Below, in pieces: positions 25,129 through 57,885 of a stretch of 64,000 bases of DNA. The DNA is taken from NCBI RefSeq assembly GCF_003704095.1, contig NW_020843402.1, positions 1,116,001 to 1,180,000 on the forward strand. The letters are read 5' to 3'. The first letter of the stretch is position 1. Each line of letters starts with the position of its first letter. This DNA is from Pocillopora damicornis. Taxonomy: Eukaryota. Made by a program: the position numbers and the translations under genes. The notes under the pieces are model-generated. The model was not told where the DNA came from. It made no database searches and saw nothing but the letters and a program-made list of their open reading frames with translations.

Positions 25129-28100
25129 GTATGTGCCGGTTGCTTGAGTGCTCAAAATATACTTTCTCCTCACTATACCAGTACATTGAACCGAAGACAT
25201 GTGCTGAGAATAACCCAAATAATCAACTAAGACCCCAAGACGTATGGCTGATGAGATGACAAAGTCTCAGCACTAATTTATTGTCAATATGTGGCGATCA
25301 GTCAAGAGAAATTATGTTTTAGTGTTGGACCTGCGAACGACCACAGTTTGCCTTTTTCATTTCCAACATTGTGTGCGAAACAAATTTCACCATTCAGAGA
25401 AAAATCTATTCGCAGATCACCTGATGGTGTCAGTACGATAATTATAAAAGAACTCTTTTTAAGAAGCGCGAGAAATTCGTGATTCTACAGGAGACAAAGA
25501 AACACTCCTCGCGCGCTCATTCTTCTTGTGTGTTTGCGTTGTAGTTAACATGTTTAAACCGACATTTGTTTAAACCCATCTAGGAAGGTAAAGTCACTGT
25601 TGATTCGTCCCGCACAGTGTCCGTGGTTTCCGATGGACAACTAGAGTAAGTATTTCTAAAGGAAAAATTTCGTAGAAAGAGATTGTACGAGCATGCGGTG
25701 CTTATTGAAGATTTAAGTTAATCTCTGAGAATATATTTGGCCACAAGCTTAGCGAATGCTCGTCATAAACGCAATGGCCTGTCGGTCAGCGGTATGGACT
25801 CCGAGTCGAGAGTTCAAGGTTCGAGATCTGGCTCGGTCATGGTGTTTTGTTATTTGGGAAAACAGTTAACTATTACAGTGCCTCCCTCCGCGCAGGAGTG
25901 TAACTGGGTACCAGCAAAATGTTAGAGCAGCCTGACAAAATACAGGGGGAGGGGTGGGGGTAACCTGCGGTGGAGTGGCATCCAGGGGGGAGCATTAATA
26001 TTCTTAGTTGCTCCTTGTTACAGAAACCAGGATAAACTGCGGTTGGAAGGTCATTTGGCTTAATTGCAGACATTTTTATCGGATTTTAACTAGTGATCTT
26101 TTTGCCTCGAAGGAAACTAGACTTGAACAACTCGCCGTTGTTTCTTGGTGGTATAAAGGACTTCGATCAGTCCCTGGATCACCCGGGCAAACACATTCAG
26201 ACTGATGATTTTCTTGGCTGTATGCGGAATGTGTTCATCAACGGCAAGAAACTGGAGCCAAGTGCCGCCACGGAGTCCGGTGGCATCATTGACAGCTGTC
26301 CGCGGTTAGACCAGTGTGCTGCAAACCCATGCGAGAATGGGGGGACGTGTGTTGATTATTGGTTTGAGTACGTGTGTGAATGTCCGAAAGGATTTAGTGG
26401 AAGGAACTGCGAAAAAGGTTGGTGTGATTGTTCTGGAAAAGAATCTCTATTACGCAATTAACGAAAACACAAAAAAATGTGAATTTTCGAGTGGTTAGTA
26501 TTTTCTTAGTTTTTGTCTCCTACGCTACCATTTTCAGTGCCTCTCTAGGGCTAAGCCTCACTGTATGGTAGGGGCTTTCCTTACAGTTATTGGAAACCCA
26601 GTTCATCCTGGCGATTATTCGTGAAACTACAATCCGACACAATTGTGGAAATATTTTCGCAAGGCAGTGAGAGAAAGGAAAAGTTATTGTTAGTTCATTG
26701 TTTATCGATTTCAATCGTTCGTTTTTCTTCTTTATTACAGTGGTACAACCAGTGAAATTTAGCTCGGATAGCTTCCTAGTGCTGCAGTTTAAGGACAGCT
26801 ACCGTCGCGAGCAGCAGCGAAAAGAAAAAGAAGGAATCTCCTCTCGGAGAAGAAGAACAGTGTCCTCCAACCAGGAACAGTTTTCATTCAGATTCCGCAC
26901 TCGGAACATGAACAGCCTTCTCCTTCTCGCCAGTGATTCAACCACGATTGTGTCCTCTGGCTACACTGTGTTGGAGGTAAGCTAATTTTCTATCGGCAAT
27001 GACTTTGATTGAACATTTTTTTATTTTTCCCCATTGAATGAGAACTTTCTAACAAGGTACCTAACTCCAATTAGCATAAAAGCCGCCTACACCTATGTCA
27101 TACACTGTTATGCGCTTGTTGCCGTTTAAATTTCTTCGTCCGTAGTTCGCAATGAAGTTCTTTCGTACCTGTTTAGAGTTACTAATCATTTTTTTTAACT
27201 AATAATAAGTTTCCTTTTTAAAGAGCTCGTTTGAAATCACTTCTCCGGTATCCTCCCATGCTGGCAATTGACTGCGTCCCCACTGTTTCGCATAGCTTCT
27301 GGTCGTGTTTTTATATGAAAGGCAGCAGTTTGAAGATCGTGAGTTATAGGTTTGCGAGTTCTTCCACGGTACTACGTTTTTTTTATAAATGGCGGCGTCC
27401 CTGCAGTAATTTTTTTTTTAGCAAAGTACAGCATTGCTTTGTTTACTTCTTGCTTAAAAACACTCAGCCCTTATTTACGCCGATGTTTTTTGTTACTTTC
27501 TTGAAGATTAAATCTGGAAATCTCAAGTACAGCTTCGGAAATGGGGGTAACATCGCAAGCTTTGAAGTCAAATCTTCCACTGTTTCTGATGGCGAATGGC
27601 ATAATCTTACTGTCCTTCATGTTGATAAGAGCGTGACGGTCACGCTAGACGGTAATATTCATCCAAAGTCATTCGAAAGTTCAGCACACGATTTTCTTGG
27701 TAAGAACATAAGAATCTGGTTCCTTGGTGGTTACGATTCGTCTATGTCGGGCTTGAACTTGGCAAATTTCTCCGGTTGCATGGAAGATCTAAACATCGAC
27801 GGTTTACACGTGTCGTTCTCGGGACCCAACAAGTTCGCTGCAATTTCTTCCCAAGGCGGTTCAGTTGGCGAGGGGTGCGATGGCGGCGGTTTCTGCTCCT
27901 CTGTCATCTGCACAGACTCCAGTAAACCTTACTGCTTCGAAGAATGGGAACTAGCAACCTGTATCAGCGACGAGCAGTGTAAACCGAATCCGTGCGGGGG
28001 GAATGGGACCTGCCAGCCGCAGAAGGACGGTAACTACACTTGTATGTGCAACGGAGAGATCGGAGCTTGCACTGCAACCCCAGGTGAAAGAGGCAGAGAT

Positions 28101-29513
28101 GGTGATGACAAGTCGCTAAGCACTGGAGTTATCGCAGCTATAGCTTTTTTTGTAGTGTTGGTAATACTTATCATTGTAGCAGTGATTTTCGCTCGTCGGT
28201 ATCGACGGCGACAAAAGGCTAACGACAAGACGGTAGCAGAGGGTTTTGACGCGGCTGTCACCGGGGCTGAAGTGGCTGCAGATGTGCAGGATGCTTCCCA
28301 GAGAACATCTCCCTCGCACAGCAGCGATGACAGCGGTGTAGTCATTCGTAATCCGAGTCAGAAGTCGTTGACCGATTTGCGACCGGCTACCCTTCAGAAT
28401 GGCAAGGACATTGTGATACACAACGTCGGAGCCCCTGAGGATTATCAGATCAAACTTACGAGATCCCAGGAGAAAATCGACCCAGGATTTTCTGAATCCG
28501 ACGGGGAATTTATCATGCGCAATGACGTGGCCTTGAAGGAGGTGCCTGCTGATCTAGGAGATATCTCAAGGCTGTCACGAACCCCTAATCATCGAAGTAC
28601 GCCATTGGAAAAGGAGCACTTACGGTCGGCACCGACAAATATTCGATCAAGGAATCGCGAGCGGAAAATTCCGAACCCTCACTTTAGGCATGGCACGGAC
28701 AAGCGGCAACAGCTATCCAGAAGTATCCTGGATCCAAGATTGCGCGTGCCAACCACACAGCCAACGAAATCTTCGAGACGCTTTCGGAAAGGTTCGCTGG
28801 GTTCTTCGAGCAGCGACGAACCTGCGGACCTCTCCGATGCCGGTCACAGGTCGGACGATAACAACTCTGAAAGACTTGAACACTACGATATTGAAGTAGC
28901 GAGCCTCGGCTATAGTGAAGTGTCTTACCAATATGATCCTAGTACTTTCAAAGACCATTCGTTGAACCGCCAAGAGCCACGGGGATTATCAGCAGTAGAG
29001 ATCGAGAGACTTCGAAAGCAAGCACCATCGGGAAGCTTACTTGATGCAGTGTCCTCAGTTAGTGACGAAGACGCCCCGACAATCGATAAGTTGTCGAGCG
29101 TTCTCGAAGTTCCCGACACTTCAAGTGAGAGTTCCGATGATACTTTTACGTGTAGCGAGTTTGAATACGACAACGATGAACCTAGCCGAGATGAGAATGA
29201 ACGAGGTAGTATGATATTCTCTAAGCTGGTCAATGGAGATGCGAAGGAGAACGAGAGTACTCCAAGGAGAAAGCCGAACGAGGGACGAGCGTCAAACCGA
29301 GGATCGTTAAGTACTTTAAATCTGAGTGATGATGAAATTTTACCAAACGCTTTAAATAATAAACCAACGAATGGCAAGAAAGACTTATTCAACTGGGACG
29401 ATGTGTTGAACTGGGGATTGAGGTATCACAATCTTCGAGGAGTGTATAAAGACATTGCACAACTGAAAGATTCTACGAATGTTGCAAAGAACAAGGACGA
29501 AGAGTACGTTTGA
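12982..29513 (+). CDS. FAT4: Protocadherin Fat4-like (Drosophila Fat orthologue group), about 4,900 aa. Exons: 12982-25128, 25584-25645, 26113-26417, 26741-26976, 27507-29513
   Basis: Signal peptide ([17 protein letters not shown]), then roughly 34 cadherin repeats (estimated from length; LDRE, DxNDNxPxF, AxDxD motifs), EGF repeats, LamG, EGF, LamG, EGF and a TM helix ([22 protein letters not shown]). The cytoplasmic tail has Fat/Fat4 motifs [25 protein letters not shown] and terminal EEYV. GT-AG junctions join in frame (phases 0,2,1,0). Confidence 0.93.
25770..26045 (+). mobile_element. tRNA-derived SINE in Fat4 intron 2
   Basis: A-box-like TGGCCTGTCGG and B-box GGTTCGAGATC. Body ACAGTGCCTCCCTCC...GGGTACC...GGTAACCTGCG...GTTACAGAAACC is shared with 44080-44330 and 55230-55355. 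Confidence 0.65.
27507..29513 (+). CDS. FAT4: Fat4-like last coding exon (LamG2 C-half, EGF, TM, intracellular domain)
   Basis: Acceptor ttactttcttgaag|ATT at 27506/27507 inside the 760-aa ORF. Ends KDEEYV*. Confidence 0.9.
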   Translation: MKSGNLKYSFGNGGNIASFEVKSSTVSDGEWHNLTVLHVDKSVTVTLDGNIHPKSFESSAHDFLGKNIRIWFLGGYDSSMSGLNLANFSGCMEDLNIDGLHVSFSGPNKFAAISSQGGSVGEGCDGGGFCSSVICTDSSKPYCFEEWELATCISDEQCKPNPCGGNGTCQPQKDGNYTCMCNGEIGACTATPGERGRDGDDKSLSTGVIAAIAFFVVLVILIIVAVIFARRYRRRQKANDKTVAEGFDAAVTGAEVAADVQDASQRTSPSHSSDDSGVVIRNPSQKSLTDLRPATLQNGKDIVIHNVGAPEDYQIKLTRSQEKIDPGFSESDGEFIMRNDVALKEVPADLGDISRLSRTPNHRSTPLEKEHLRSAPTNIRSRNRERKIPNPHFRHGTDKRQQLSRSILDPRLRVPTTQPTKSSRRFRKGSLGSSSSDEPADLSDAGHRSDDNNSERLEHYDIEVASLGYSEVSYQYDPSTFKDHSLNRQEPRGLSAVEIERLRKQAPSGSLLDAVSSVSDEDAPTIDKLSSVLEVPDTSSESSDDTFTCSEFEYDNDEPSRDENERGSMIFSKLVNGDAKENESTPRRKPNEGRASNRGSLSTLNLSDDEILPNALNNKPTNGKKDLFNWDDVLNWGLRYHNLRGVYKDIAQLKDSTNVAKNKDEEYV

Positions 29514-30248
29514 TAGAGAGAGAGAGAAGACGTTATTTTTTAGGGAACATTTTATTTATTTATTGAAATAAGGCTTGAAATTATCAAGCCAAGTGTGAGT
29601 GGAAGGTGTATATAGCAGTAGCGTGTTTTTAGTTGATTGTTTGAGAGAAAGAGGTTTGACTCAGAAAGACATGTTACATGCAGAAGATGCTTTTAGACGA
29701 GTTTAGAGTTTTTTTTAATAACTTTATTGAGTTTTCTGTGAAGACGAAATAAGGACAGTATTTATCTATTGAAAACTTCAATAACGATTTTCAAGGGTTT
29801 TAAAGCTCTTTTCCCATACGTTTTCATTATTACGTTATATCTCTCTCGTGTTACTAATTCTCAACGTTTTCATTGGTAATAGTCCTTTAGTATCTGTAAT
29901 TGTTCTTTATTTTTGTTTTTTTTAATCGACGGAGGACATTAACCTGGGGACCAACCTGGGTTCGTTTTTATACGATCTTAATCTGGTATTATTAAAACGA
30001 CTTCCACTCGCAAAATACAACAACAAAGTTATATTAGTAGAAAATGAGCGCCATCGTTAACGAATGCTGATTAAAGTATGTTTTGTATGGAATGTGTTTA
30101 ACGAGCCTTGATTATTCTCATTGATATTATTTTCGAGGCTTTGACGAGAACTAGTCGCGTAGTGCTTTTCTTGTTTTTTTTTTATGATGAAATTATGAAC
30201 AAATTTTTGGTGCACAAAACCTTTGTCTTTTTGTAAACCCATTTCGGT

Positions 30249-30411
30249 TACCCTCCTGGACAGGGGCCGTGTTTTTGCGTTTTTCAGACGAGACAGGGCC
30301 AGTGAGAGGTGTGTGCGGGAAGCGAGACACCCGGCTCGCACTCGCTTCCACTTGCCTGGGAAAAAAAGAAAAAAAAAAAAACGCAAAAAAATGGCACATG
30401 TTCTGCAAGCT
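30249..30411. mobile_element. Short TIR element (degenerate MITE) between Fat4 and GTPBP8
   Basis: Left GGACAGG..GTGTTTTTGCGTTTT and right AAAACGCAAAAAAATGGCACATGTTCTG are imperfect inverted repeats. Confidence 0.45.
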
Positions 30412-30707
30412 ACACTCAACGGGATACCCCTTTTAAGATTATTACCCCTTTTAAGATTATTCCTTTTGTTCATCCCTAAATTATTCATCCACTGGCGTAC
30501 AAATATTTCAATGCGCTGCTTCCTTTTACTTTTCCTCATTGTAACCCAAGAGCATGTGGTGGCTCTGCTTTAATCCTCATTAATTTTTATCTATTTTATT
30601 ATGTCTTTATGGATGACGCATTTTTTCGATACAACAACTTCATGAATAGAAGATTGCTCCTCTGACAGGTACATCTGATAGTCCTCCATTCATTGGCTTG
30701 GTTTTGT

Positions 30708-33700
30708 TCACCAATTTTCGCTATTTTTTAAGCCCACATTTAGACTGATGAAATATCTCAATTCTGATAATCCTGTCTTTTCTGTAGAACTGAAAAATAA
30801 ATTGGAAGTTGTTAACCTTCTACACCTTAACTTCAGTATCTAAATTCCCCATACTCCTCTCTTAAATTTCCTTTAATTGCAAAGGATAATTCATGTCGCA
30901 ATCCAAGCTTCTTAGGTTGCAGATCATTTCCTTTATTCTCATGATCAAAATTAACATTTCAGCAGTGTCACTGTAAGGAGAAAGTAGATGCTGGTTATTC
31001 TTAGGATTTGAAGGGTTAATTCACTCCCCCGATCCATGGAGTTGTGTCTGCAAATGACTGGTTGCCTACTTGTAAAAATGAGCTCTCAAAAGAGGTGGTG
31101 GATGCTCGATGGCTCTGGTCTCAGAAATCTAGATTGTCTGCAAAAAGATTTCCATTCTATTAAAAAAAAAACTTTTATTCTGCAAAAATACTTTAATCCC
31201 ACAAACAGACTTTCATAAGAGAGTGGTAAACCAAGTCAACCTACTTGCCTATGAAATAATCATTTGTTTTCATTACTGTTCTGTTGCATGAGTTTCATGA
31301 AAATGAAGACAGCAGAACCAAAAAAATAAAAAGCAGATTTGCCTCTTGTAGCTCATCTACTGATGACTCCTACTTAAACTCTAAAGGCAACAGCACAACC
31401 TTCCAACATCTTACCACTGCAGTAATTGTATTTTTTCATATGTCATCTCACCTTACAGCAAATACATGGGGAAAGCAATTGTCTAGTGAAAACTTTTCTT
31501 TGATTTTGTAGATTTCTTCAATCACTGCCTGGTGTCTTGGCTTGGGAAGCTTGTCCATTTTTGTCAAAATCACCTAAACAACAATGTTACAAGAGCTATG
31601 AAAATTTAAAAATTAAAAATATGACACACTATATAAAACAAACTACCATTTCCCACAACTGTAAATATCATTGGCCATGCCCTTATTCTTTAAATGTTTG
31701 GCTGTCAATCAAAATAATCTTTGGTCCATTGTTGAATCTATTACATAAACAGCAGTGAGCTAACTTACTTGAAAAGGACCACCAAACTCTCCCATCATTT
31801 CAAATGCTATGAGATCACTTTTTTTCACCCCAACTTTCCCATCAATCAGAAGACAAACACTTCTTAACCTGAAAATAAAATTGCAAGTTACCAGAGGGCT
31901 GGATTTATTTCACCTATATCTTAAAGTTTAACCCTTTAACTCCCAAGATCTGATTGTTAATTCTCCCCTGTAGCTGCTACACATTTCCCAATAAATTAGT
32001 TTTTACAATATGGTGTTGGATCAACATAACTTTCATCTGATAAGTTTGAGTATTCTTATTACCTGTTTGCTTGATAATCTATGGATATTATAGGGAGAAG
32101 TAAAATGTCAATCACTTATGGGACTTGAAGGGGTAAGTTGTTCTGTGTATCTATGCATTGACTGCAAAATCATTCAGGAAGCCAGAAGATCAAATCCCTA
32201 CAAGAAAACCTGTTTTTCTTGTCAGTAACAGATGTTTAAAATCATTTGCTTTACTCAAAATTAAACTTTTCTCCTGTTCTATCTCTGCACAGGACAATTT
32301 TAACCTGGACATTTATACAATTAGAAAGCAATGACCAAGCCTAACAGAGATTCCCCCTTAGAAGATAGACTAATGTCTAGCTGTGCAGATAGACTAATAT
32401 CTATCTGCACAGGACAATTTTAACCTGGACATTTATACAATTAGAAAGCAATGACCAAGCTCAACAGAGAGTCCACCTTAGAAGATAGACTAATATCAAG
32501 CTTTGAAATTGGAAACAAATCATTGTTTGAATTATCTCAACCCTTTACACCCTAACATCAGTATGCATATTCTCCATACTGTTCTCTATACATTTCTTAA
32601 GGTGCTGACAAGGAGAATTTGTTTAACAATCAAGAGCTCCTATAGTTGGTGATCATTTTCTTTATTCTCATGATCTTAAATGAATGATTCAGTAGTATTA
32701 TTGTAGGGAGAAACTAGATGCTGGTCACTCTAAGGGTTTAAATGGTTAATAAAATCTGAATGTTCCTTTTTTCACCCGCTTGTGATGAGTTGTTAAGCAC
32801 ACATTGCTCTTACAAAGTTTACACAGGTCAAGAGAAGTAAACCCCAAGAACCATTGATTCCCAACAGTTGATATTACATGCCAATTATCTCATTTAACTT
32901 ACTCTTTTCCAGCTCGTTCTCTCAGGTAAGTCTCTGCAACTTTGACAAAGTGTTCAGTTCCTCGCTTGCTTCCAAGACCCTCCACATATCCATAGCCAGG
33001 AAGATCCACTAGGTACATTTTTGAATTGATGTTGAAAAAGTTAACAAGTCTTGTGTGTCCCTAGAGGGATTAGAGGGATTTAATGTTTAAAACAGAAGTA
33101 ATAGCACAAGAAGCCACCAAGGCCTACAGTATTTAGACCTCTTTAATTAGCAGCTAGCAATACCTACTAAAGGTAGGGTGTGGAATTGTTCCCTTACTTT
33201 TGTAGATGCTGAATCAATACTCATGCTAACACCCTCAGAAAACAGACAGTGAATATATAAGTAGGTTTAAAAAGACATACTGGCTTCTTTGATGTCTTCA
33301 CAAACTTTTTCCTGTTCAAGATTGCATTTATGAGAGATGATTTACCAACACTTGTTCTTCCAATAAAAGCAACCTGTTGGCACATGAAATAAAACAAGAG
33401 TTATTTATATACTAGTTGTAAAATAAGTTAGATTATTTAAATAAAATGGTTCAACTATTTCCTGCTAAGATTTGGAATGGACTGGCAATCATCAATTTCA
33501 TCTTCTTCCCCTGCCCCCCCCCCCCCCCCCCCCCCACCCTTCCAACCCTAGCCACAAAGAAAAGACTCAATTCCCCGCTTTCCAAGATTACAGACCAAGA
33601 TATTTACTTATAATTTGTTATTTAATGAACAGCTGTTGCAAGACGTTAGTTGCAATATGATTGATTTGTGGCCTAAATAAATAAGAAGATCTGATCGAGT

Positions 33701-33971
33701 GTACATGGAACGTTACGCGGGACATCACCTCAGGTAATTTAAGTTTTGGAGCATCTTCCAATTTGAGGGCCGACCCATGGAAAGAGGCTTTGGGTCCGAT
33801 CAGTTCAAATTCATTGTCTGCTCTATCTAAAGCTCTTCTGGTTGGATTAAAGCTCGTGTTGTATCCTTGAATACCAGATGCGACATGCTGGCAGTAAGAT
33901 CTCCATATTAAAAAACTAAAGAATTTCTTATGGCAAGTCGAGGACTGCATCAACTCTCTTGCTCCAGGCAT
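30708..33971 (-). CDS. GTPBP8: GTP-binding protein 8 (EngB/YihA-type GTPase, probably mitochondrial). Exons: 33971-33729, 33373-33281, 33060-32903, 31868-31769, 31573-31452, 30789-30708
   Basis: Spliced translation gives LPE|[19 protein letters not shown] (G1), KTSKKP|GHT (G2), [10 protein letters not shown] (G3), VILTKMDK (G4), FAVS|[11 protein letters not shown]. All introns are GT-AG and in frame. The start could be ATG 33971 or 33950. Confidence 0.88.
30812..31019. mobile_element. TTAA-flanked piggyBac-like MITE (about 210 bp), subfamily A
   Basis: TTAACCTTC...GAAGGGTTAA ends. Internal GATCATTTCCTTTATTCTCATGA and TAGATGCTGGT shared with 32537, 34761, 40568 (reverse) and 44337. Confidence 0.7.
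31928..32136. mobile_element. TTAA-flanked piggyBac-like MITE, subfamily B
   Basis: TTAACCCTTTAACTCCCAAG...TATGGGACTTGAAGGGGTAA inverted termini. Related copy at 35051-35252. Confidence 0.7.
32284..32500. repeat. 120-bp-period tandem duplication in GTPBP8 intron 3
   Basis: TCTGCACAGGACAATTTTAACCTGGACATTTATACAATTAGAAAGCAATGACCAAGC occurs at 32284 and 32404. Confidence 0.85.
32537..32749. mobile_element. TTAA-flanked piggyBac-like MITE, subfamily A
   Basis: AACCCTTTACACCCTAACATCAGTATGCATATTCTCCATAC...TAAGGGTTTAAATGGTTAA; closely similar to the 44337 copy. Confidence 0.75.
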
Positions 33972-34072
33972 ACATGTAGGAAGCAAGTAGTTGAAGTGTG
34001 CTGATTCATACTGAGCCGGCAATCATACTGCGGTTGTAAGCATCCGGGATACTTGCGCCATGTGGAGGAAAA
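33972..34072. promoter_or_regulatory. Compact bidirectional promoter between GTPBP8 and THOC2
   Basis: Divergent ATGs only about 100 bp apart. CpG-retaining island within CpG-poor gene bodies. YY1-type AAAATGGCGGC overlaps the THOC2 ATG. Confidence 0.7.
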
Positions 34073-37000
34073 ATGGCGGCTATCGTTGTCCCATCCAATT
34101 TAGTAAAGAATTGGGAAAAATCGGGGAAAGATGAAGTGTAAGTCTGTTCATTTCCTTTGAAATGCCATTTTATATTCAGTCTGTTTGAATCGTTAATATT
34201 TTTTTGCAGGTTTCGTTTGTGCAAGAACTGCGTGCGAGGCAAAGATGGAGAGCTTCTGGAACTAAACTTTCAATGCGGAGAGAATGGTACGTAGGTGAAC
34301 TTGTCAATTATATTTAAATTCTTGTGATGATTTCTAAATTGATTGTCATTTTTACTTTAGATCTTAAACGCGTGATCTATGAAGTATTTAACCATGTTAT
34401 TCAAGGGGATCTAAGACAGGAAGATGCTATACCGCTCCTGTCAGATGTCACGGTGAGGATCACATTTATTCTTTGATTATTCGTTCGATTTGTTACTTCC
34501 AATTCTGAGTTGAATTTATGCTCAAACGTATTTCGATTAAATGTCCAGCTTTGGTTCAGAAGACTTTTGGAGGTCCACAACTTGTGTTTTCATAATTTTC
34601 CGATCGCGCTTTTCTAATTAAATTCTGATTATGTTAGTTGCGTTCAAAACAAAATATCAGCGCATCTTTGTATCTCCTTAGATTGACTAGTTTCCCAGGA
34701 AACTATACTTTTTGGTTTTGTGTCAGGGGCAAGTGAAACGCTTTGTTTATGACAGATATATTTACCCTTTTCGCCTCAACTTCAGAGTGAATATTCTCCG
34801 TAAATTTCCTATGGCATCGACAGGGAGAATTTAGTTAAAAGCCAAGAGTTCCTTCAGTTGGCAATTGTTTCTTTCATTCTTGCGACCTTAATGTTTGATT
34901 AAGCAGTTAGTCCATTTGGACAGATTAGATGCTAGTCGCTCACAGGGGTTGATGGATTAAGTGGTGTCTGAGAATTTTGAAAGCAGACATTGTTCATGCA
35001 TTAGCCCTTCACCAGAGCACAAAGGAACCTGGTAATACTTTGATTTACGTTTAACTCTCTAACTCCAAGAACTGATTAACATGTAATTTCTCCCTATACT
35101 ATCAATACTTTATCCAGCAAACAGTTATTAAGAATACCCAACCTTATTAAATAGAAGTTGTTACTTGATCAAACATCAAATTCTCTGAACTAATCTACAA
35201 GGACATGCACAGCAGCAATAGGGGAGAATTAATGATCAGATCATGAGGTTAATGCTTTACATAACAGCTCTGGCATAATCAAGGTTTTGCCTTGGCTATT
35301 GTTTTTATTTATATTTTGTTTTTATTTTTCAGGAAGTCCATTCAGGATGTTCATCACTGCTAGCTGACCTGATATGTATCTTGGGTACTCAAGCTCTATC
35401 CAATTAATTGCTGTTGCTTTACGTTAAAATTTGTTTAATTATTCTGTCCAATGTCATGTGCTGACTGCAGTGTTGTCAGGAGCACAGGTTTTCATGATTG
35501 TATGTATCCTATGGTTCCTGGTGTATTCACAATCCTATAGATGTGGAGAGTCAGTGCACAGAGGACAAGCCCAGCAGGGAGAGGTTCTTGTCTCTGGTCG
35601 GAGCTTGCGTGGTATGTTAAGAAGCCAAAAGGCAGTGATGTTGCTCAAAGAAATTATTTTCGTTTTTCAAGAAATTCTTTGCTCTAGTAACAGGAGTGTC
35701 AGTTAGAGCCAGCAAGTAGAGAAATTCTTGGTCTATGTCCAGCAAAATTGCTGCTTATATATAAGGCCATCCAAGGGGAAAAATTTGGGGGCTTCCCTCA
35801 GTACATCAAGAAATTGAGATTGCTCTAGCACAGTGATTTCAAGTAAAGACTTAAATACAATTTAATTTTTTAAATAAAGGGGGTAAGGTTCTAAAGGAAC
35901 TGACAGTGGTGCATCATTGGTGGGGTAGTAGAACACAATTATTGATAATCATTATTGATAATGTAAATTAGCTATTTTAAAGAGTTTCAAAGCTGAAGCC
36001 TCGAGCATTAGCCTTTAGTCAGCTCTGATGAGGGCTAACACTTGAAACATAGGCTTTAGAAACTCTTTATGGTGGCTAATCTATATTGTCAACTCAGTTG
36101 ATAAAACCAAATCATCTGATTTTTTTGTTGTGATAAATTACTACATTGTACATTGTTACAAAGAAACCAAAAAAAACTCTGAAATAGTGGAAGACCTCTT
36201 TTTCCTTGGGAGAAATTCAAAATATTATTGATCATTCCAATGATACTGAAGAATTAAAAAATATATAGATACAGTAAATGTTATTTGAACACATCTAGAT
36301 GTTTTCTTTTTTTTATCTACATCACTGTCTGTAGGGATTGGTTCCAGAAGTTCTGCTCAAGGAGAGGCTTGAAGTGGAGACATTGGACTCACTAGGAATC
36401 ATACAGTCAACAAAGGCTTTTAATCAGAAATATGTCAGGACCAAGACTAAACTATTGTAAGTATATGCTGAAGGTCAACTTTTCAGTCTTATAAAATATT
36501 TGATTTTCATGGTTAAGCAGTTAAGATAACATACCAGTGGTTTTCAATTGAAAAGCATATTCCAATAAGCTTAAGTATCCATAAGCTTTACTTTTTATTT
36601 GTCTTAATGAATGGTATTTGAAACATGGCTGTGCTCTCCCTTTACTTGATTTATGTCTCAGCAATCACTCACTGTTTAGCAGCTTTCTAAACTTGCATCT
36701 GTCAGACAGGCTGATAAAAGCTGACACAGTAGTGTGAGTCATGTGGTGTGTGTGCATTACAGGTTTCACTGAGTAGCAAAATGTTATGTTTACTTTGTAA
36801 ATTGCCAATTGTTAGAGAACAACCCTGCTGAGTGTTTTCTAGTTGACCATTATTGGTTCTTTTTAAGTATATGTTGTATCTGAACTGAGGCTGGCAATTA
36901 AGTGGATATCTGGTAGAGGACCACTGATTCTTTTTAGGCCTCAAAGGTGTCAGTGTACTCTAGTGATTTGGTATTTTTCATGCAGATTTCTTTACTTCTG

Positions 37001-40000
37001 TTGTTGTTATTTTCGTTTCCTTAGCTATAAGCAGCAGAAATTTAATCTTGTGAGAGAGGAGAGTGAGGGCTATGCCAAACTGGTGACAGAACTGGGACAA
37101 GAAATCAGTGGACATGTCACCAGTGAGAGAGTTCTGGAGAACATCAAGTCTCTAATAGGTCAGGATAGCTGTTAGATATCAAACAAGTGCAGAACTGTCA
37201 TTGAGAGCTGGAAGATGTCTGAAATGGATGGCTAGTCTGCCATCTTTTGCTAGATACTCTCACCTAACTTTATCTTAATTGCTAATGAAAACTTGTGTAT
37301 TTCATGACGATGTTCATCATTGTTAACATATATTGTAGTCTTGTTTGTAAAATTTGAATTGAAACCATGACATCAATTAATATTATGATTTTTTTTTTTC
37401 AGGGCGGTTCAATCTTGATCCAAACAAAACTCTTGATGTGTTACTGGACTCGTTTGAATGCCGCATTGATGTAGAGGACTTCTTTCTTCCTCTTTTGAAA
37501 TCATACATGGAGAAATGTGAATTCACTGCCCTCTGTCACATCATAGGCTTTAAATTCCAGTTTTATAAGGTATGGATTTTTGAGAGAAAAGGAGTTTTAA
37601 GATTGACTCTTAGGATGAAATGGGAATTTTTCTCTAATATTGTTTTTGTGACTTTCTTTTGTTTTAGGAGCAGCCTGACTTGCCCACCCCTCCATCACTT
37701 TTCCATTTGACAGCTCTGCTTATAAAGCATGGTCTACTCAACTTGGATGACCTTTATCTTTATGTAAGTAAAAAAAAAACCCAACAGCATACAACAGAAA
37801 AGTATGACATAATTTAAAGTGTCTTTTTATGTTATTTTTTAAACACTTTTTCATTCATAAAAGGGAGAGTGAGGTGTGCTCACTTTTCCCAAATTGTGGC
37901 CAAATTTGACTGGCCTGTTAAATAGCTGCAAAGATGGTACTCATGTTAGTGTTTGCAAACTTAATGTGGTCAATCACTGAACCACGTATGGCACATGACT
38001 ACAGGTGCAAAGTTGGACAAAATAGATTAGACATGACCAATGCAATAATACTCTGGGAAGGAGGGAGGTGCCGGTTTAAGGAGGGGTGGGGGGAGCTCTT
38101 GTTTTAAAGTTTTGGCAGATATAAGATCTGCTTATTCAGTTAAAGTATTGAATGGGTGCTCATTGAAGGGTGTTGCTTATGGAAGTCAAGGGGCTAGCTC
38201 AAGGATGTCCCATGCTTTTTTTAATTTGACAGCTACCAGACATGGTTCATAGGGGATCACTTTAGCTTTACTTCACATTTCCAGGGAGTAGTTATGTAGA
38301 GCTCTTGCAAGTAAATAGATGTTAGAAGTTCATTTTTCTTTTTTCAGCTCAGTCCCTCAGATGCAGACATTGTCACCAGCAACACAACAAGAATGGATGA
38401 AGCCAAACAGGAAGCAAGGAAGATGAACATGGCTGTCTTAGCAGTAAGTCTTTCTCAATTTTGAATTTCCAGTGTGCCTGTGTATGGAATGCTGTACTAG
38501 ATGATAGATGGAGTACAATGGGTTGTTTGCATACAGGGGACCTGTTCTTATGTTGTACACTTAGAGCCTATATCCTTACATGTAAACTTCGAGAAGCTAT
38601 TGATATGTATTTTCTCCCCACAATTTCATAATAATATCCAGGAAGAAGGTAAAGAGAGAACAGAGATGTATCATGTGAATGATTTTGTCTGGTCAAAACA
38701 CCAAACTCTCATAACTACAGCTTTAGTTATGAAGGGAATTTATTGAAGCTTTATGGGAGAATTTATCTTTCATAGATGTGTCTTTCCAAATATGTTAATT
38801 AGGTTTTCTATCTGCAATACTCACATGTACATTTGATGCTATGTATTTTTTATTGCAGGAAATTGCTGCAGCAAATAATGAAGAAGGCAACAAGGAAAAT
38901 AAAGAAAATGATAAACCTACAATTGTATGTTTTTTTACTCTTGTTAAGGAAGATAAAATAATAATATTTTATATTGTATTGGGTTATTGTCATTTATCCA
39001 GATCTTTAAATTCACCAGGTTCCAGATAATCAGAAGTTTGGTTTGTGTGAAGCACTGTTGATGGTAGGTGCGTGGAATAATGCTTGTTCAATTCTGGACA
39101 GATTACCTCAGTTTGCTGCTGTGTCCCATCCCCCCATAGCCAAGGGATTATGCAAGCTTATTCATACAACCATTGAACCTCTGTATCGAAGGTGAGTTCA
39201 AAACTATTTAGGGTATGGTTCTTCTCTTGTGTGTTTGATTGTTTATCACATACAGGGTGAAGTTACTGAATGCCTATTAGCTGAGACAGAGGGCATTTTT
39301 TTCTTAATCATGAGAGCACTTTGTCTTCATCCCTTTGTGACTTAGGCATGTTTGGGAAAACTTTGAAAATATGCATGAAATTAATCCTTAATTGCCTGAG
39401 GGCCCATGTGATTATATATAAAAATCAAACAATCAAGTTTCCTTGCAACTTTTCTTAAGGATTTGAATCTTAAAATGCTTCTTAAGTTTGCTGGTTTTAA
39501 AGAGTTGTTGACAGAGACTTGATCTTTCTTCAGACATGCTTCCAAGGCAGCTAGAGGACGACCTTATGCGCCTGTTCCAGGGGGGCCTCCACAATGCAAA
39601 GTGTTCACTGATCTTCCAGACTATGTGTTTTCCATGTTGCTTCATCTGGGCCCTCATTTGTCCACTGATCCAATCCTAATGGCAAAAATCCTGAGGATCA
39701 GTAAAGGGTTCATGAAAGATGTAAGTAAAGGATTTTTAAATGTATTGACACTCAAGATCTTGAGTGATTCTTTTAGCTTCTATTCATTTCTTTTAAGTAA
39801 GTTGAAGCAGTATCTCAGATTGCAAGTTTGGGGTATCCAGGAAAAGTTAGTGCTACATGTATTAGGACACAGAGAACAGACACAGGTCTTCTATTAGAAA
39901 TTCTACCTTAAATTTGAGATAATGGAAAGGTTGAGGTACACACCAAATCTGATTTTCATTTCTACTATCTAGTCTCTATGAAATTTTTGCAGATCAATTT

Positions 40001-43000
40001 TAGGAATTTGGCATTATATCAGGAAAACACTTGAAAACTGTCAACTTTCTCTTCTCACCACCTGTTTACTTTTTGATTTATCTATATTGGTTATTGAAGT
40101 GATTATGCATTGTTTGTATTAGTCAGTTACTGTTGCTCTGTAAATTCCAAAGTATTTAAGACAAACGCTCAGGCTGATTTTATGGTTACTCTGACAAAAG
40201 TAATGAAAATCTAAGCCAATTTATGTTATGTTTCCTCAATGATGGTTAATCAAAATCATTGAGTGTAATCATGATAGCAAAACATGGCTGATGAGGAAAC
40301 AACAGAGATGATATTTCTGTTTGGGACACAGAATAAATATTTTAAATCAGAAAATTTGACTGGAAATGTTTCCTTTTGTGTTGAAAGCATCCAAATGTGT
40401 TTGAGGAAAAGGAGCAGAATTCAGCTCAGGTTTGTTTGTGTTTATTATTGGTAGTCTTAATAGTGATTAACTGTAGAGTTCTGAAAATTTCAATTATTAT
40501 TAGTTCTCACTATTCAATTGTGGTTGTGTTCATAGAATTAATTATTGGCAATAGTAGTTTCATTTCCATAGCCTTTTGCCCCTTGAGAGTGACTGGCATC
40601 TAATTTCTCCCTACAATGTAACCCCCAAAACACACATTAAAGTCATGAGATGAAAAAGGAAATTATCACCAACCAAAGAAGTTCTTGATTGTTAAACAAA
40701 TTCTCCTTGTCATCACCTTAAGAAATGTACAGAGAACAGTATGGAGAATATGCATGCTGATGTGAGGTTGTATTGGGTTAATCAAAGCTCTTCTCTTTTC
40801 TGTGTCAATTAATCCTTCCATCCCCTCTAGAAGTTGATTTCTAGTTTATGTAGTTTGTTGCTGTGCTTTCTTGCACTGATTCATGGCTTAAATTCCTTAG
40901 ATCTGTCACATACTGATCTTGTGAAGAATTTTCGTCATCTCCAGGAGTTAAATTGTTCAGATTGTGCTGATGTACTTACTTGACTTGATCTGTAGGTTGA
41001 GAAAGTCTGGTGTGGATTTTTGACCCTAATGGATGAAGTCCTGTTGCCATCAATTTCATTATTGGAATGTAACTCCAGTTTGGCTGAAGAACTTTGGGCC
41101 ATGTTGTGTCGTTTTCCGTATGAGCTCAGGTATATCATGTGTGTCTTACCCAGGATTTAGGACCCACAGATCTAATAGAGTGCAAAATTAAAGTCTAACC
41201 CTGCTGTTATTATCCTATAAAGATTGTCCCTGGTAATGTTAAGCATGATAGGTCACGGTTTTTCTTTAGCAGAATGCAGATAATACTGTCAGGAGACTAA
41301 CTTTGGTCTTTGAGTGACTTGTATCACTTCCCCATATGTGGAAGCTTATTAGCACTGGGTACTTCAAATTTCTGACACCCCAGCCTTCATAAACATTGTG
41401 GTTCTTGTGGTTGCACAGTTTTGTCTATGGATTCCACTCTAGAGAATTCTCAAGGTTATTTAATTCTATTAGGGAAGTGTAGCTCAATTACATGAGAGTT
41501 ATTGATGTCCTCTTCTCATAGAGGAACTCACATTAACTTTCAATGCTGCAAACTTCCAAGAGAAACTGTGGATTTTCTGATGCTGTGGCTGGAGAAATTG
41601 CCTCTTCATTCGTTCATCCACAAACAGTCATCTTATTAAAATGACTTGTAATTTAACATGTTGAAAATAAAATAGCTATTATTTCATGCTCGTTTTTTTC
41701 TAAACAAAATTCAATTATGTCTCTTGTGTCAGGTATCGCCTCTATGGCCAGTGGAAAAATGAATCTTACAGCAACCATCCTAAAATGGTTGTAGCAAAAG
41801 CAGCCACAATAAAGAGAGCAAAATACATCACTAAGTAAGTTACTGTCAGTGTAGTTTCTGAACTTGATGGAAGGAGTTGCCAGAGGCTAGACTTTTAAAT
41901 AATTTTTATGTTGTCATTGCTGTCCTCAGGAGGTTAACTAAAGAAAATGTCAAGCCCTCTGGAAGGCAGATTGGCAAATTGAGTCACAGCAATCCAGGCA
42001 TATTGTTTGAATATGTAAGTTTGCAGTAATTTAGATATAATGTGCTCTACAAGTATGCAGAAATGAAATTAAGATGTTTCTTCGCTTGTGTTTCATCATT
42101 GATGCAGTGTTTTCATTAGAGCTGCAAAATGTTTGTACAGTTGCAAATGAGTAAAGGGGGAAAGGTTCTTAAGAAACTGAGAAGCTGTGGTGCTGTGTCA
42201 GTGGGAGAGTATAACAGGGTAATTTAGTGTTGTCAGCCAAGTTATAACTTGGTATTCACTCTCATGAAGGGCTAATGCTCAAAATCTTAATGGTGGCCAA
42301 TTTATGTTATCAGCTCTGACTGCCATGCCTCCTACATTGGTGAGACTGGCAGAAACCTCACAACTAGACTGACTGAACACAAATGAGCAGCAAGGAAAGG
42401 CACTGTCAACAATCACATTACTGAACATCACCGACTTACAAACCACACTATTGACTGGGACTCTGCGCAATGCCAAACCTACAGCACCAACTACTTTCAA
42501 TGACTGACCCTGGAAAACTGGTTTACTAACTTGGAACAGACTCCCCTAAACAGGTGTCAACCATTACCGGCACCATACAAACGACTCATCCACGACATTA
42601 ACATTACAAACAAACCGAACAGAGCGATCTAACTTCACTAACGGATCCAAACCAACCAATCACGACTGACCTATGCCACTAGAGTCTTACAGCCAATAAC
42701 ATCATGGCAAAACTGACCAATCAGTGTACACAAACCGGACTAAGTACATTCGACTGACAGCAACCTTTCACTTGACTCTGATGATGACTTCCGCTCAGGT
42801 TGTCAAAATGTCAGTCACCACTACTGGCAACAGTCCTTCTCAGGACTTCACTCACCTGGACAATCAAACTACACTATTACATTATCAACTCAGTTGATAC
42901 ACTAAATTACTCAGCAAATGAGTAACCCTAGATGTGCCTGTCTTTTTTGTTTTGCTGTCAATTTTTAGTTCTGTTTACAGGTGTGAGGTTTGGTGACTGT

Positions 43001-46000
43001 GTGGCAAGCACCTTGCCCACTCTTTGCCTTCTTAGAACAATTGTTGTGATCTCATGACCCCATTATTCATCCACAGCTCTTGTCACAAATTCAGAAGTAT
43101 GATAACTTTATTGGGCCTGTGGTGGATTCACTGAAGTACCTCACTCCTTTGGCGTATGATGTTTTAGCTTGTATCCTAACCGAAAGAGGAATTTCATTGT
43201 CTTTATTCTCCCACTTTTTGCATAAGGTCATAAAGATTCTCTCACTTAAATGCCTTGTCAGGGCATAGCTGTACATGCTACGGAAACAACAGAATTTCTA
43301 CATGTATGTCATCTATATTGTAGTTAAAATGGCAGACCAGCATATATGGTAGCTTTAATGGAACAGTAGGTTAAATGTTGGCAAGTTTGCAGTTGCTATT
43401 GCTCTTTTCCTTAACAAGATGACAGATTGTATCATTGAGGCTTTGGCAAATCCTGAAAGAGAAAGGCTAAAACATGAAGACACTAACATCTCTGAGTGGC
43501 TCAAAAGTAAGGTCCATGTTATTGTAACTTTCAACACCGTTATTTTTCACATGGTTTGTGATATTTACAATGTTGAGTTCAGTGGCCTGAGGATCTAACT
43601 TCCCATATCGTAAGTGGAAAGGAAGAGGGAAGTGCAATTTGTAGTTTTGACAGACATTATGAAGGAAAATGCAAGCAGGTAGCTGAGTAGAAATCCTTAA
43701 TTAATCAGCTGGGAAATACTTTCTCGATGTTGGCCTGCGAATCAGCTTTCCTGGGGTAGGGGCAGCTGGGTTGGAGAGAGCTTCCACACAGGCTAAACTG
43801 GTGTACAACTGAATTCTTCATTGTTTTGTTTCAGGTCTAGCTGTATTTTGCGGTACTGTATTCCGCAAGTATTCCATCGAGCTTACTGGTCTTCTGCAGT
43901 ATGTGGCCAATCAGCTCAAAGCTGGAAAAAGTTTTGATTTGCTTGTGTTGAAGGAAGTTGTTCAGAAAATGTCTGGAATAGAAATATCAGAGGAGGTGAC
44001 AGCAGCGCAACTTGAAGCTTTGTCTGGTGGCGAACTTCTGAGGGCTGAGGTAAATATGTTTTTTATTGTCTGCTCTGTGAGGTAACATAAGCCAGTAGTT
44101 AGTGTATTGGACTCCAGATTGGAGATTGTGGCTCAAGTCCTGGTTGAGTCTTTGTGTTGTGCTCCAGAAGAAGACAGTTTTCTCTCACAGTGCCTCTTTC
44201 TAATTAGAAGTACAAATGACAACTAACAAACAATGTTGTGGTGAAGACTACATGTACATTTAGCAGGCCTTTCAGGGAGAGTGATAATACCCCTTGTTGC
44301 CACATGCCATGAAGACTAAGATAAGGGCAGTAACCAGTAACCCTTTACACCCTAGCATCAGTATGCATATTCTCCATACTGTTCTCAAAATATTTCCCAA
44401 GATGCTAATGAGGAGAATTTGTTTAAAAATTAAGAGCCTCTTTAGTTGGAGATCATTTCCTTTATTCTCATGACCTTAATGTTTGATTCAGAGCTGATAT
44501 TGTAGGGAGAAATAAGATGCTAATCACTCTTAGAGGTTTAAGGAATTAAGGATAATGATGCTTTTTAACATCAATTGTAGGCAAGTCTCTACTAACTTTT
44601 TCTTCACTTTATTCATGTATGTTGACAAGGTTTACGGTAACATAGCCAACAGTTTTGTCAATGTTTTTCTTCAGGGTGGATACTTTGGCCAGATTAGAAA
44701 CACCAAGAAATCTTCCCAGAGGTTGAGAGACACTCTCATCGAGGGAAAGTTAGATTTGCCGCTCTGCTTGCTCATGGCTCAACAGAGGAATGGCATTGTG
44801 TTTTTTGAAGATCCTGATAGACATCTGAAGCTTGTTGGAAAGCTCTATGACCAGGTATGATTGGAAGTTTCCATTGCACTGTGGGTTGCAAATCCAACAA
44901 ACATAAATTTCCGTGAATGTCTCTGCCTAGTGGAACTATTCAGTTTAAAACGGTGCAGGTGTTCTTTGTTGTTCTCGTGAACCTTCAAGCAAATTTTGAA
45001 CGTGGAATCTGCTCGCACCTCTAAACCTGGTACTGGTAAAATTTGCATTTAATTCCAGTCTTTATAGGAAACGAATACTGTACAAATATCTTCGGTGGTA
45101 ATTAAATAATCTTACGGTTTTTTTTGTCGGTACTTTTTTGCGTGAAATAAGCTGAAAGTAGCTAGCTAAAGATGACAGACCAACTAGAAGTTTTGGCCGC
45201 CTAACGACTCCTATGGACAACTCTGTACGAGTGCTGTGTTTTCAATATCTTTTACTTGAACTGTAGAAATTCTTTTGTTTTCTAGTGTCAAGACACCTTA
45301 GTACAGTTCGGTGGCTTTCTCGCCTCGCAGTTAACTGCTGAAGAGTACGAATCACATGTACCGTCCTTGGATGTTTTAGGCCAAAGTTATCATCTAACAC
45401 CTGACGTGGCATTCTTTCTGTCTAGACCTATGTTTGTCCATCAGATAGATGTGAGTATTGAAAAAAAAGATGTCTTTTTTTTTCTGAAAAATGATATTGA
45501 AGTTAAGATCTCAATTCTAAGATATTGAACAAAGGCACACTTTTTTATTGTTTTGTTCTGTACTCACCTCCTAGATTAAGTACGAGGAAGCAAAGAAAGC
45601 AATAGCTGCCAAAGGAAAACAGCTTCAACAAAAAGTGAGTGGGTAAACCAGAGCAAAGTAAAGCTTTGTTGAGATGTTATATGACTGACTCCGCGAGCTG
45701 ATAAGAAAGCGTTACTCCTGCGCAGCGATTGGCTATCCAATCCAACTGTGCTTATGCGGATATTGGTCAGTCTTTTCCAGAAAAAGCCGGATTTCAGTCA
45801 GGCGCGCAATAAACCCCTTAATGATCAGGTTTGTTGAACGTTGGCCTCGTTCTGCGTGCAGTTATGGACGGTAAAACCTTGGGCTCTGATGCACGTGCAT
45901 ATGACAGTGGAGATTTTTATCGCCATTATGGTAGTTAAGAGAAGTGACGGGGCAATCGAAATTGAAAGGAGCAGTGCTGCGGTTTATGTTGGCTGGGCGT

Positions 46001-49000
46001 GGTCAGGGTTTTTTGTTGTTGTTGTTGTTGTTCACACACCGACTGTAGAAGGCTTGTTTCGAGTAGTCAGTCAGTTCAACGTAACTGCAAGGATATTGAA
46101 CGTTTTGCACGCCAAACAAAGAAATCTGTCTGATTTTATAACAGCTGCACCTTATTTTAATGCTTAAAAGTATGCTTTTCACAGATATTTCAATGAATTC
46201 ACCTGACCTGCATTCCCACAACAGATAACATTTAATTTGTTTCTGTACAGCAAATTCTGCAGTGCTACATTGAAGCCGTGAATTCTGCGATGGAGCCTGT
46301 GTTCCAGAGTGCACGGCTCTTGCAGGCACCAAGAGTCTGGAATAGTATCAGGTGGGTTGATCAGTGTGTATCTTTTCCCTTTCATTCCAATACATTGTCA
46401 CGCAAACAGGTGGCGAGAATGACCAAACAATCAAGGAAGGAATAATGTCTTGGCAAAAGATTGATTCGAAATCTCTTTACGAAAGCATAATAGCATGTAT
46501 GGCAATCAGAGAAGAGAATTTATCGTTAATTTAGATCGAGAAAAGGTTGAATGTTGCCGTAAAAAGTTGCAACAAAGATTTACTGAAACTTTTGGGATAT
46601 CAGATTTTCAAGAAAAAGATTAAACTGAAAACAAACAAACAAACAAAGAAGAAGGACATAAAGTACATTCATCATCTGCTTTGGATGAAAAATAACAATT
46701 CTATGGTTGGTTCACATTTCAGTCCTCAATTGTATGTGACTTTCTGGGCGCTGTCCATGTTTGATCTGTATGTACCATCCGAGAGATACGAACAGGAACT
46801 GAATAAATTGAAACAACAACAAGCGCAGCTGGATGATAACAAGGATATGGTAAGTTTTATTATCAAACCGAAGGTCTTGAAAAGTTGAATCAAATTTTGA
46901 TTTTCTGTTCCAATCGCATCTGATAGATTTTGTGATGTCTTTTTGTCTCAATGGGCAACCCGTGCTCGGCAAAGATTGCAGCAGAAATGCTTCCCCTTTT
47001 GCTAGTTGAGAGCAATTTCTTGAATCAGTGTAGGCGTGAAATAAGGTTTTTTCTCCCGGGTCCCCCTACTGATACCGGCTTAGTGCTGAAAGGGCCACCC
47101 TGCCTAAATAAAGATGACTTGACTTGAGTGTTTTGTGAAGAGGTCCGTGATCGAGCAAGGACTAAGTTACGTGTTGTGTTCTGGGGTTAGAAACTTTGCC
47201 CTAACAGTGGTTACTCTCTAAATCAAAGAGATTGTGGGCCTGATTTATGTAATTCTGTGCCATTCTGTTATTGTTAGATCGCAAAGCTCCCAAAACTTGA
47301 CCGTTTGAGACTCCTTAATTAATGAGAATTGTTTGTGTTGAGCCTCAGTTGAGTGTATTTAGTTAAAGTATGTCATGCTTTTCACAGCCGGTCAGCAAAA
47401 AGAAGAAGGAAAAAGAGAGGTGTTCTCTTTTAGTGGAAAAATTGAAAGAAGAGTTTAAACAACAGGAAGAACATAACCAAAGAGTGATGGCATCGCTTAA
47501 ACACGAGAGAGACTCATGGCTGCCAGCTAGTAAGTTCAAAATTATCTTGAGGACGTCACGGTATATTCCTGTTGAAAACTGAAATTTATCCGGAATTTTT
47601 CAAGTTCGTTGTCTGTAATCCGTTTTTGTTGTTTTTATTCTTAGCTATCCTTCTTGTTTCTTGGTTTGTTACTTCTTGTGTTATGTTTCTGCATCTCTAG
47701 CTCATTATGTTGTGAGCTTTTTGTGGCGCTTTGTTCCGGAAACTCTTGTTACGCATCTGAGTTATAATTTCTCTCTTTTAGAAGCGACAAAGAGTGAGAC
47801 CATTACACAGTTTCTTCAGCTCTGTATGTTCCCGAGATGTGTGTTTACTGCGAGCGATGCTGTGTACTGCGCCAAGTTTGTCCACATGCTGCATAATCTC
47901 AAAACGCCAAACTTCTCAACACTGCTCTGCTTTGATAGAGTAAGTGGCATTTCAGCTCATTTATTAGATATGTATTCTTTTTAAAGGGAGAAACTTTACG
48001 TAACATTAATTTTTTTCATTTAAGGTATTTTCAGATATTTCCTACACAGTGGCCAGCTGTACAGAAAATGAAGCCAGTAGATATGGTAAGTTACATGAAC
48101 GAATATTATGAACCAGTATTACAAATGGAACAATTTTCCAATTGGAAGGCTAAAGTGTTTCGGGATTGCGTTGTTGTTACTTGTCCGCGATCTGTGATTG
48201 GTTTGAAAAAAAAAAAAACAGCGCCATTTTCTCAACCAATCAGATGAAAAGCTGAAACAAATCTCGACAGAGTCACCCGCGTTTTCCCGCGCTTCACGCT
48301 TATTTCATGTGTTTGCTTTGAGTTCTTGAATTATGTTTCGTAAAATATTTACATTTTTTTTTTCGTTTGGCCGATGACGTGGTTAAAAAAAATATATTAT
48401 CAGCTAGGAGGCATTGCCTTGATAAAATCAGAAGGAGAAGTAGGAGCGTGTCTCTGTGGAGAGTACCATATTTGAGTGCTAACCTTGGATTTTTTCCCGT
48501 GATAGGTCGGTTTTTATGTTCAATGCTTGAAATAGTTATGAGGTGGCACGGTGACAAGAAAACATACGATAAGGTATTCTTATTTTGTTGTTGTATCTGC
48601 TTATCTTGTCATGTGATACATTTAAACTTTAGTAATTTTTTATTTGGTATCATCTCTCCTTTCAAAGTCTTTTAGTTTCCCAGACATGGCCCTTTGTTTG
48701 TACTAGGTCACTGAAATACGTTCATAAACAAACCCTTATTGGAAAAACTTTTTCCCTTGAATGTGTAGTAATTCTACACATCGTTTAGCTATTTAGTGAA
48801 CGCTCAGGCTGTATAGTGGTCAGAATACAATTAAATACCAGATGGCTTTTGAACACGACCAAGAAAGACTAAAAGTTGGTTAACATGTTGTAAACGAGTG
48901 CTCTTTTCCGTCTTTCATTAGGAATGTGGAACTTATCCGGGATTTGTTACAGTTTTAAGAGCTACCAACAACGATAAAGCTGATCATTTGGACTACGAGA

Positions 49001-57486: not shown

Positions 57487-57885
57487 ATGCTTATGCCCAA
57501 ATCGATCTTATCTCATCGAAAGCGTCGTAAAGAGTCAGAAGAAGATGGTAAGAGTAACATGGGAAGGTAAGAGATTGTCGGCATTACCTTAATGACCGAT
57601 GCAAAGATATACTAATATGAATTGTTCAATAAACATGCACAATATATACAAAACTGTTTTTTTAGGTATGACCTCCCTTCAAAATAAACAAAAACGTGTC
57701 TGCAACACAAAATTAGTATAACATCTTGATGATCGAACTACTTGAAGCTGTTAACAGGGTAATTTGGTATTATCAACTAAGAAGCTGACGTTTTGAACGT
57801 TAGCCCTTCGTCAGAGCTAACGCTCGAAACGTCAGCTTTCAAACTCTTGACGGTCGCCAATTTGTTATCAACTCAGTTGATTATA

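Follow-up and report, generated by a model that had tools for sequence, protein, structure and literature searches.

A minimal hammerhead of a Penelope-like fragment in a THOC2 intron of Pocillopora damicornis, predicted to be inactive and probably disarmed by neutral CpG decay

Overview

An intron of the THOC2 gene of the coral Pocillopora damicornis carries a truncated fragment of a Penelope-like element (PLE) whose minimal hammerhead ribozyme is predicted to be inactive through the change G12>A, and which very probably decayed neutrally through deamination of methylated CpG sites. The fragment lies in a stretch of 64,000 nucleotides (assembly GCF_003704095.1, contig NW_020843402.1, positions 1,116,001 to 1,180,000; the window hereafter). 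The hammerhead class is a described one and the setting ordinary; the copy is broken, and CpG decay explains its condition. As one dead copy among hundreds the locus by itself is of little weight; a by-product of its study is a first, small test of the harm done by intact minimal hammerheads in introns. The coordinates of the motif, the element and the surrounding repeat are collected in Table 1.

Table 1. Features of the THOC2 intron and of the repeats inserted in it (positions are those of the window)
Feature	Position	Strand	Basis
GT..AG intron of THOC2, 1,062 nt, holding both repeats	42015..43076	+	joint 42014>43077 in 3/4 RNA runs
Left part of older foldback repeat (family B), invaded by family A	42156..42312	.	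similarity; left edge approximate
Second hammerhead (family B), more broken: CUCAUGA in place of CUGAYGA, cleavage region deleted, G12>A at 42281	42258..42286	+	
Apparent 11-nt target-site duplication	42302-42312 (TTATGTTATCA) and 42877-42887 (TTACATTATCA)		inferred
5'-truncated 3' fragment of Penelope-like element (family A), 570 nt	42313..42882	+	alignment; common tail-less 3' end
Dead GIY-YIG endonuclease tail	42313..42632	+	86% identity over 109 aa to intact family frame
TAA stop of GIY-YIG frame	42630-42632	+	translation comparison
Minimal type I hammerhead of family A, broken	42773..42817	+	sequence, family alignment, descriptor, folding
Hammerhead stem I, TGACT/AGTCA	42773-42777/42813-42817	+	sequence
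CUGAUGA box (CTGATGA)	42778-42784	+	sequence
Extra U (T in DNA) between positions 9 and 10.1	42785	+	sequence
Stem II, GAC/GTC-closed	42786-42804	+	sequence
AAAA where GAAA expected	42805-42808	+	sequence; then TG, then TC of GUC triplet ending 42812
G12>A, CpG to CpA; general base lost, GAAA reads AAAA	42805	+	family alignment; G12 role from PMC2553840
C15.2>T, CpG to TpG; self-complementary ACGU of dimer helix III to AUGU	42809	+	family alignment, folding
Would-be cleavage site	after C42812	+	predicted from motif
Right part of family B repeat	42883..42910	+	similarity

Structure and ancestral state of the hammerhead

An original prediction, made from the letters of the DNA, had read this motif as a Penelope-type minimal type I hammerhead inactivated by CpG decay, and the letters agree with that reading throughout (stem I, CTGATGA, T, GAC/GTC, AAAA, TG and the GUC triplet), as do core, family consensus and stem covariation with the class assignment. 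The G10.1-C11.1 pair is also present (G42786-C42804). Stem II had been described as 3 bp closing a 13-nt loop; the GAC/GTC closure stands, but folding predicts more pairs, namely 3 bp, a UU/UU internal loop and 2 bp capped by a GCUCA loop. Likewise, two CpG transitions had been said to destroy GAAA together, and while both transitions are there, G12>A alone breaks the box. C15.2>T turns a C-G pair of helix III into a U-G wobble, which keeps the triplet and weakens the palindrome, the predicted dimer helix III duplex going from -1.7 to +2.6 kcal/mol. The window hammerhead is thus predicted to be inactive because its catalytic G12 is A.

A descriptor relaxed for G12>A found three matches in the window, while 40 first-order Markov resamples of the window averaged 0.0, and an Rfam scan up to E = 10 returned no hammerhead family, its nine matches being to unrelated families below threshold. 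The fold of 66 nt has a z-score of -1.25, and since 25 of 200 shuffles fold equally well, stability is not evidence for a hammerhead. When the surrounding 143 nt are folded, upstream pairing is predicted to outcompete stem I, which would form rarely (P about 0.07) even in an intact copy.

Ninety-six places in the genome match a pattern that frees only three CpGs. Up to 10 kb was fetched around pattern matches to give 91 regions and 119 aligned family A copies spanning the core; the pattern allowed CpG changes alone, so that copies killed by deletion are under-sampled. The family majority reads TGACT CTGATGA T GAC...GTC GAAA CG TC AGTCA, with GTCGAAACGTCAG as its core, and bears out the ancestral core proposed beforehand, GTCGAAACGTC; the G12 CpG is kept in 88/122 aligned pieces, and CG plus UC at positions 15.2-16.2 in 88/121. 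Absence of covariation in stems I and II had been named in advance as grounds for abandoning the hammerhead reading, and covariation is present across four families of the genome: in ten sequences, chosen by their core boxes with no requirement of pairing and representing few independent lineages (with little covariation inside family A), 92.9% of the cells of helices I and II are paired and 5/7 pairs have two-sided changes. None of 500 shuffles reaches this score, and slid controls are 17-46% paired.

The Penelope-like fragment and the repeat that it invaded

A search of the coral's own genome for the fragment gave 655 candidates, 40 of which were scored, and the window copy shows about 90-93% alignment identity to longer copies over its whole extent. 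In the longer copies an RT-like region precedes a GIY-YIG domain, with matches that lie under the Pfam cut-offs (RVT_1, E = 0.014; GIY-YIG, E = 5.7e-4 and 20.6 bits, for a cut-off of 22.6); all copies seen are broken, and one RT-side piece has no Pfam match. What the window retains is the last 109 codons of the GIY-YIG frame with two internal TGA stops, both at decayed CpGs, and the hammerhead follows the TAA by 141 nt, close to the 150 bp originally estimated. The 3' ends of family A fall into two clusters about 26 nt apart (60/119 and 36/119), of which the second coincides with the reference end, set where long copies cease to match each other; the window copy terminates at the tail-less end. 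No full-length element (pLTR-ORF-pLTR) was found in the genome search. One candidate pLTR pair 2.7 kb apart encloses no long frame, and most of the copies that turned up in an RT search were broken. Family A insertions are frequently found in pairs of opposite orientation, separated by a few bases (L067, L068, L069, L092, L109, L120, L134 and other loci), and an inverted arrangement of PLE hammerhead copies has been noted before (PMC4209133).

The fragment would have arisen when Penelope RNA was reverse-transcribed into an AT-rich site of the older family B repeat, leaving a 5'-truncated copy, and the 11-nt repeats at its borders may represent the target-site duplication, its CpG having decayed differently in each copy. 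DNA runs bridge the left junction in two of four cases under a 31-letter rule (X1 and X5; X10 has 30 letters), and all four have right-junction records, which reach 29-30 letters into the element among the records listed; joints that skip the element probably derive from other family B copies and so do not demonstrate an empty allele. A preference of family A for family B as a target was considered and rejected, family B standing at the 3' junction in 2/119 copies and on the 5' side in 2/119.

Family B has 1,111 exact pattern matches in the genome, and the intact form of its hammerhead is identical to the one listed for Acropora digitifera in supplement file 2 of PMC4209133. A further family B foldback occupies 35955-36118 and 34980-35019, by its apparent position in an early THOC2 intron; the plus arm (36020-36056) keeps CUGAUGA and GAAA, with the extra base and the cleavage site lost, and the minus arm and a third, minus-strand copy are both broken. 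Another foldback, at 57779-57927, has G12>A in its minus arm and no CUGA box in its plus arm, and adjoins predicted FGF-family exons on the plus strand (58195-58745, Pfam FGF).

The THOC2 intron and its methylation

The host gene is THOC2, on the plus strand (Pfam THOC2_N, Thoc2 and Tho2), and the intron is spliced in RNA, so the hammerhead does lie sense within the THOC2 pre-mRNA, as originally proposed. The RNA evidence consists of assembled contigs, which are blind to strand, level and RNA ends; these carry G at 42805 in most of their depth in 4/4 runs. Three sense hammerhead remnants were found in THOC2, all of them broken, and two antisense family B remnants are broken as well.

In 2-kb bins of the window, CpG o/e is 0.09-0.65 across 30001-48000, which covers the 5' half of THOC2, and mostly near 1 elsewhere. 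Such low values over the 5' half of the gene are the expected mark of gene-body methylation, methylation being read here from CpG loss, and cnidarian intronic transposons are preferentially methylated (PMC8857917). The intron was presumably methylated in the germ line, and deamination of methylated CpGs on both strands could then account for 19 changes of this kind, G12>A and C15.2>T included.

CpG decay in the window copy and in the families

Compared with family A loci other than the window itself and two that overlap it, the window copy has lost 19 of 31 CpGs (10 to TG, 9 to CA) and changed at 13 of 508 other sites, 61% vs 2.6%. At the 29 CpGs outside the core pair, 17 are lost, which implies a probability of 0.34 that both core sites are hit and of 0.28 for G12>A; with decay on this scale, both core changes are roughly a one-in-three chance without selection.

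The core CpGs of family A decay no faster than neighbouring CpGs. Among 112 copies with at least four background CpGs, 29 and 24 changes are observed at the core sites, for an expectation of 28.5 per site; per-site losses are 32/114 and 27/111 in the core, and 34/115, 29/100, 36/104 and 24/99 outside it, with similar decay of core and neighbouring sites in each o/e class. Loss at the G12 site follows the CpG o/e of the flanks (14/21 below 0.35 and 5/69 above 0.6, in bins that leave out three short contigs). In the class between 0.35 and 0.6 the G12 site is changed in 14/25 copies vs a pooled background of 25%; set against four neighbouring CpGs (39-48%) the figure is 13/24, a small gap.

The two outcomes of decay at this site differ in severity, and family A has 22 copies with G12>A to 10 with the milder C11.1>U (p = 0.05); a neutral CpG-A site 57 nt downstream of the G12 site is similarly skewed, 17:7. 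Across the 1,111 family B matches, CpG changes number 203 at a stem-II control, 186 at the helix III site and at least 182 at the G12 site, the last comprising 65 G12>A (CA) and 117 C11.1>U (TG), with TA excluded from the count. The excess of C11.1>U (p = 1.4e-4) runs opposite to family A, and could reflect sequence context or the spread of a subfamily with a G-U closing pair.

Selection against cleavage of the host transcript

An alternative account, offered in outline by the original prediction, is that an active sense ribozyme cut the THOC2 pre-mRNA, maybe by way of a Penelope protein or a pairing copy in trans, and that selection helped to fix G12>A; we consider this improbable. Its appeal lies in the sense orientation within a housekeeping gene, in the broken state of all three sense remnants there and in the severity of the change: with G12 serving as the general base, G12A reduces the cleavage rate more than 500-fold in minimal and about 10^6-fold in full-length hammerheads (PMC2553840). 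The 22:10 skew of family A has the direction that selection predicts, and the 14/25 loss in flanks of intermediate o/e points the same way; against them stand the reversed skew of family B and the like decay of core and non-core CpGs.

The premise that an intact motif would cut the pre-mRNA is itself doubtful, as single minimal hammerheads have shown no cleavage in vitro: a single Schistosoma copy showed no detectable cleavage, and dimers had low activity (PMC4209133). The Poseidon hammerhead of Anolis cleaved with protein only, which leaves room for protein-assisted cutting, and RNA-seq gave no read ending at its cleavage site (PMC11167929). Where a hammerhead had cut an intron, splicing still went ahead, but a fast HDV ribozyme prevented it; fast intronic ribozymes can abort splicing (as reported second-hand in PMC2995048). 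From these papers, a lone intact copy would seem to need a second copy or an element protein to cleave, and its cost to the host is accordingly likely to be small; the predicted rarity of stem I in its 143-nt context, intact or not, also counts against selection. Cleavage of THOC2 RNA by an intact motif would probably have been little. Depletion of tandem retrozymes from Xenopus introns has been reported (bioRxiv 10.64898/2026.07.22.740005), which counts against general intronic neutrality and indicates that dimer-competent arrays can meet selection when they insert.

A comparison of core integrity between sense and antisense copies, proposed at the outset, was made for family A. Host strands came from an exon predictor built for this analysis and were called for 66/118 family A copies, one copy with a deleted core being left out; 219 predicted exons of 45 loci with low o/e or a changed core were checked against Pfam, which backs the strand of 30 copies only. 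Automatic and Pfam calls agree in all 24 shared cases, though the two are non-independent, Pfam having been run on the predicted exons. G12>A occurs in 8/31 sense and 8/35 antisense genic copies, in 7/17 and 5/13 of those backed by Pfam, and in 7/17 and 7/16 of those in CpG-poor flanks (Fisher p = 1.0 in each case). The odds ratio is 1.17, with a 95% range of 0.38-3.62 in what is a weak test of 66/118 copies; a strong sense effect is therefore unlikely, and a moderate one compatible. No orientation bias was seen among genic copies (sense to antisense 31:35), and the core is intact in 15/31 sense genic copies, including some in CpG-poor genes such as L077 and L116. With core decay at the background rate, no sense excess of G12>A and intact sense copies persisting, the suggestion that selection favoured loss of the core finds no support here. 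Inverted pairs in CpG-poor loci, which often have G12>A on exactly one arm, were also tried as a signal of selection and rejected: L069 and L091 have the change on the sense arm, L092, L093, L097 and L109 on the antisense arm. No published sense/antisense or CpG-decay test of such intronic hammerheads was found in a search that reached few subscription papers.

The null result fits lone Penelope hammerheads not cleaving host transcripts, and so has a bearing on what these do in vivo; the genome, where one family exceeds 1,100 copies, is suited to a well-powered test once its genes are annotated. A broader conjecture, to which we would give only an outside chance, is that the general base and the dimer helix of coral Penelope hammerheads contain CpGs, so that gene-body methylation inactivates them soonest in housekeeping genes, the ones that cleavage would harm, and that selection adds a moderate push, up to about 3-fold, against sense intronic copies open to activation in trans by Penelope protein; the three dead sense hammerheads of THOC2 would then be an instance.

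Other explanations

That the copy keeps or has gained a host function, for example as a structural or splicing element, with the changes incidental to it, is very unlikely. The CUGAUGA box and both stems are intact, and the core letters recur in DNA run X2 (record 23, 42794-42878, 0 differences); however, presence in conspecific runs is expected of a fixed neutral insertion, and X2 is possibly non-independent of the assembly. Apart from 42792, no decayed CpG target falls within the intact parts, which at the 2.6% background rate of change would be expected to survive, and no alternative splice joint uses the hammerhead stretch among the RNA joints listed. Least credible of all is a source element already dead, with changes older than the insertion, since the seven other exact-pattern copies with the AAAATG core or close variants that might suggest it differ at the third CpG and sit in CpG-poor flanks, and the even strand split of the CpG changes in the window copy, with 13 mostly private non-CpG changes, is the expectation for decay in place.

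Other features of the window and the genome

Upstream of THOC2, 12952-25128 on the plus strand is a single open frame of 12.2 kb (4,059 aa) with 34 cadherin repeats, EGF and laminin G domains, a FAT/FAT4-like cadherin with a giant exon that continues at 26114-29507; CpG o/e falls to about 0.3 at 14001-18000, inside this frame. A GTPase gene (32905-33836, minus strand; Pfam MMR_HSR1) is arranged head to head with THOC2; the nearest predicted exons of the two are about 500 nt apart, and they possibly share a promoter. THOC2 introns also hold a 195-nt repeat, with 2,685 genome candidates, in two copies of opposite orientation (40586-40780 and 44338-44530) that are about 80% similar. Exons with von Willebrand C repeats lie at 60425-63755 on the minus strand, in a gene that is perhaps kielin/chordin-like. 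Elsewhere in the genome, two more minimal-hammerhead families (stem I ACCC/GGGT and CGC/GCA) were seen at L090:630-676, L090:3933-3979, L099:8867-8913 and L079:866-911; the two L090 hammerheads share one direction, lie 3.3 kb from each other and may have a full element between them. Long Mab-21/cGAS-like exons occur among the predicted exons of other genes (L079:3178-4020 and L092:2732-4691).

Comparison with known systems

The window motif most resembles the minimal hammerheads of metazoan PLE terminal repeats (Cervera and De la Pena 2014, PMC4209133), whose consensus NNN CUGANGAH G...C GAAAN-palindrome-NUH its family majority fits, and with which it shares the extra base after A9, the G10.1-C11.1 pair, CG at 15.2-16.2 in its family, a short helix I, a place 3' of a putative RT/GIY-YIG frame and many solo and inverted copies. 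It differs in G12>A and C15.2>U, and family A in the UU/UU internal loop of stem II; the family A letters (GCUCA, CUGAUGAU and AGUC) were not found in supplement file 2 of that paper. Poseidon PAc of Anolis (Frangieh et al. 2024, PMC11167929) has an optional tail of 30-40 bp, to which the 3'-end clusters of family A are similar, and an AT-rich insertion site, a resemblance drawn from that paper and from motifs; unlike the dead window fragment, PAc is active, and its ribozyme cleaves with protein. Non-LTR retrozymes, for which intron depletion has been studied, carry type I hammerheads from Penelope terminal repeats in head-to-tail tandem arrays (bioRxiv 10.64898/2026.07.22.740005), whereas the window element stands alone and retains part of an endonuclease. 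It has no direct repeat in 38000-48000, and tandem retrozyme units are absent there, so the hammerhead lacks a tandem partner for a dimer. The CPEB3 ribozyme is active and has a different fold. Like the functional intronic ribozymes of the CPEB3 type (PMC10919898), the window copy is a motif of a self-cleaving class in sense orientation within an intron; unlike them, it is without its general base and belongs to a high-copy repeat.
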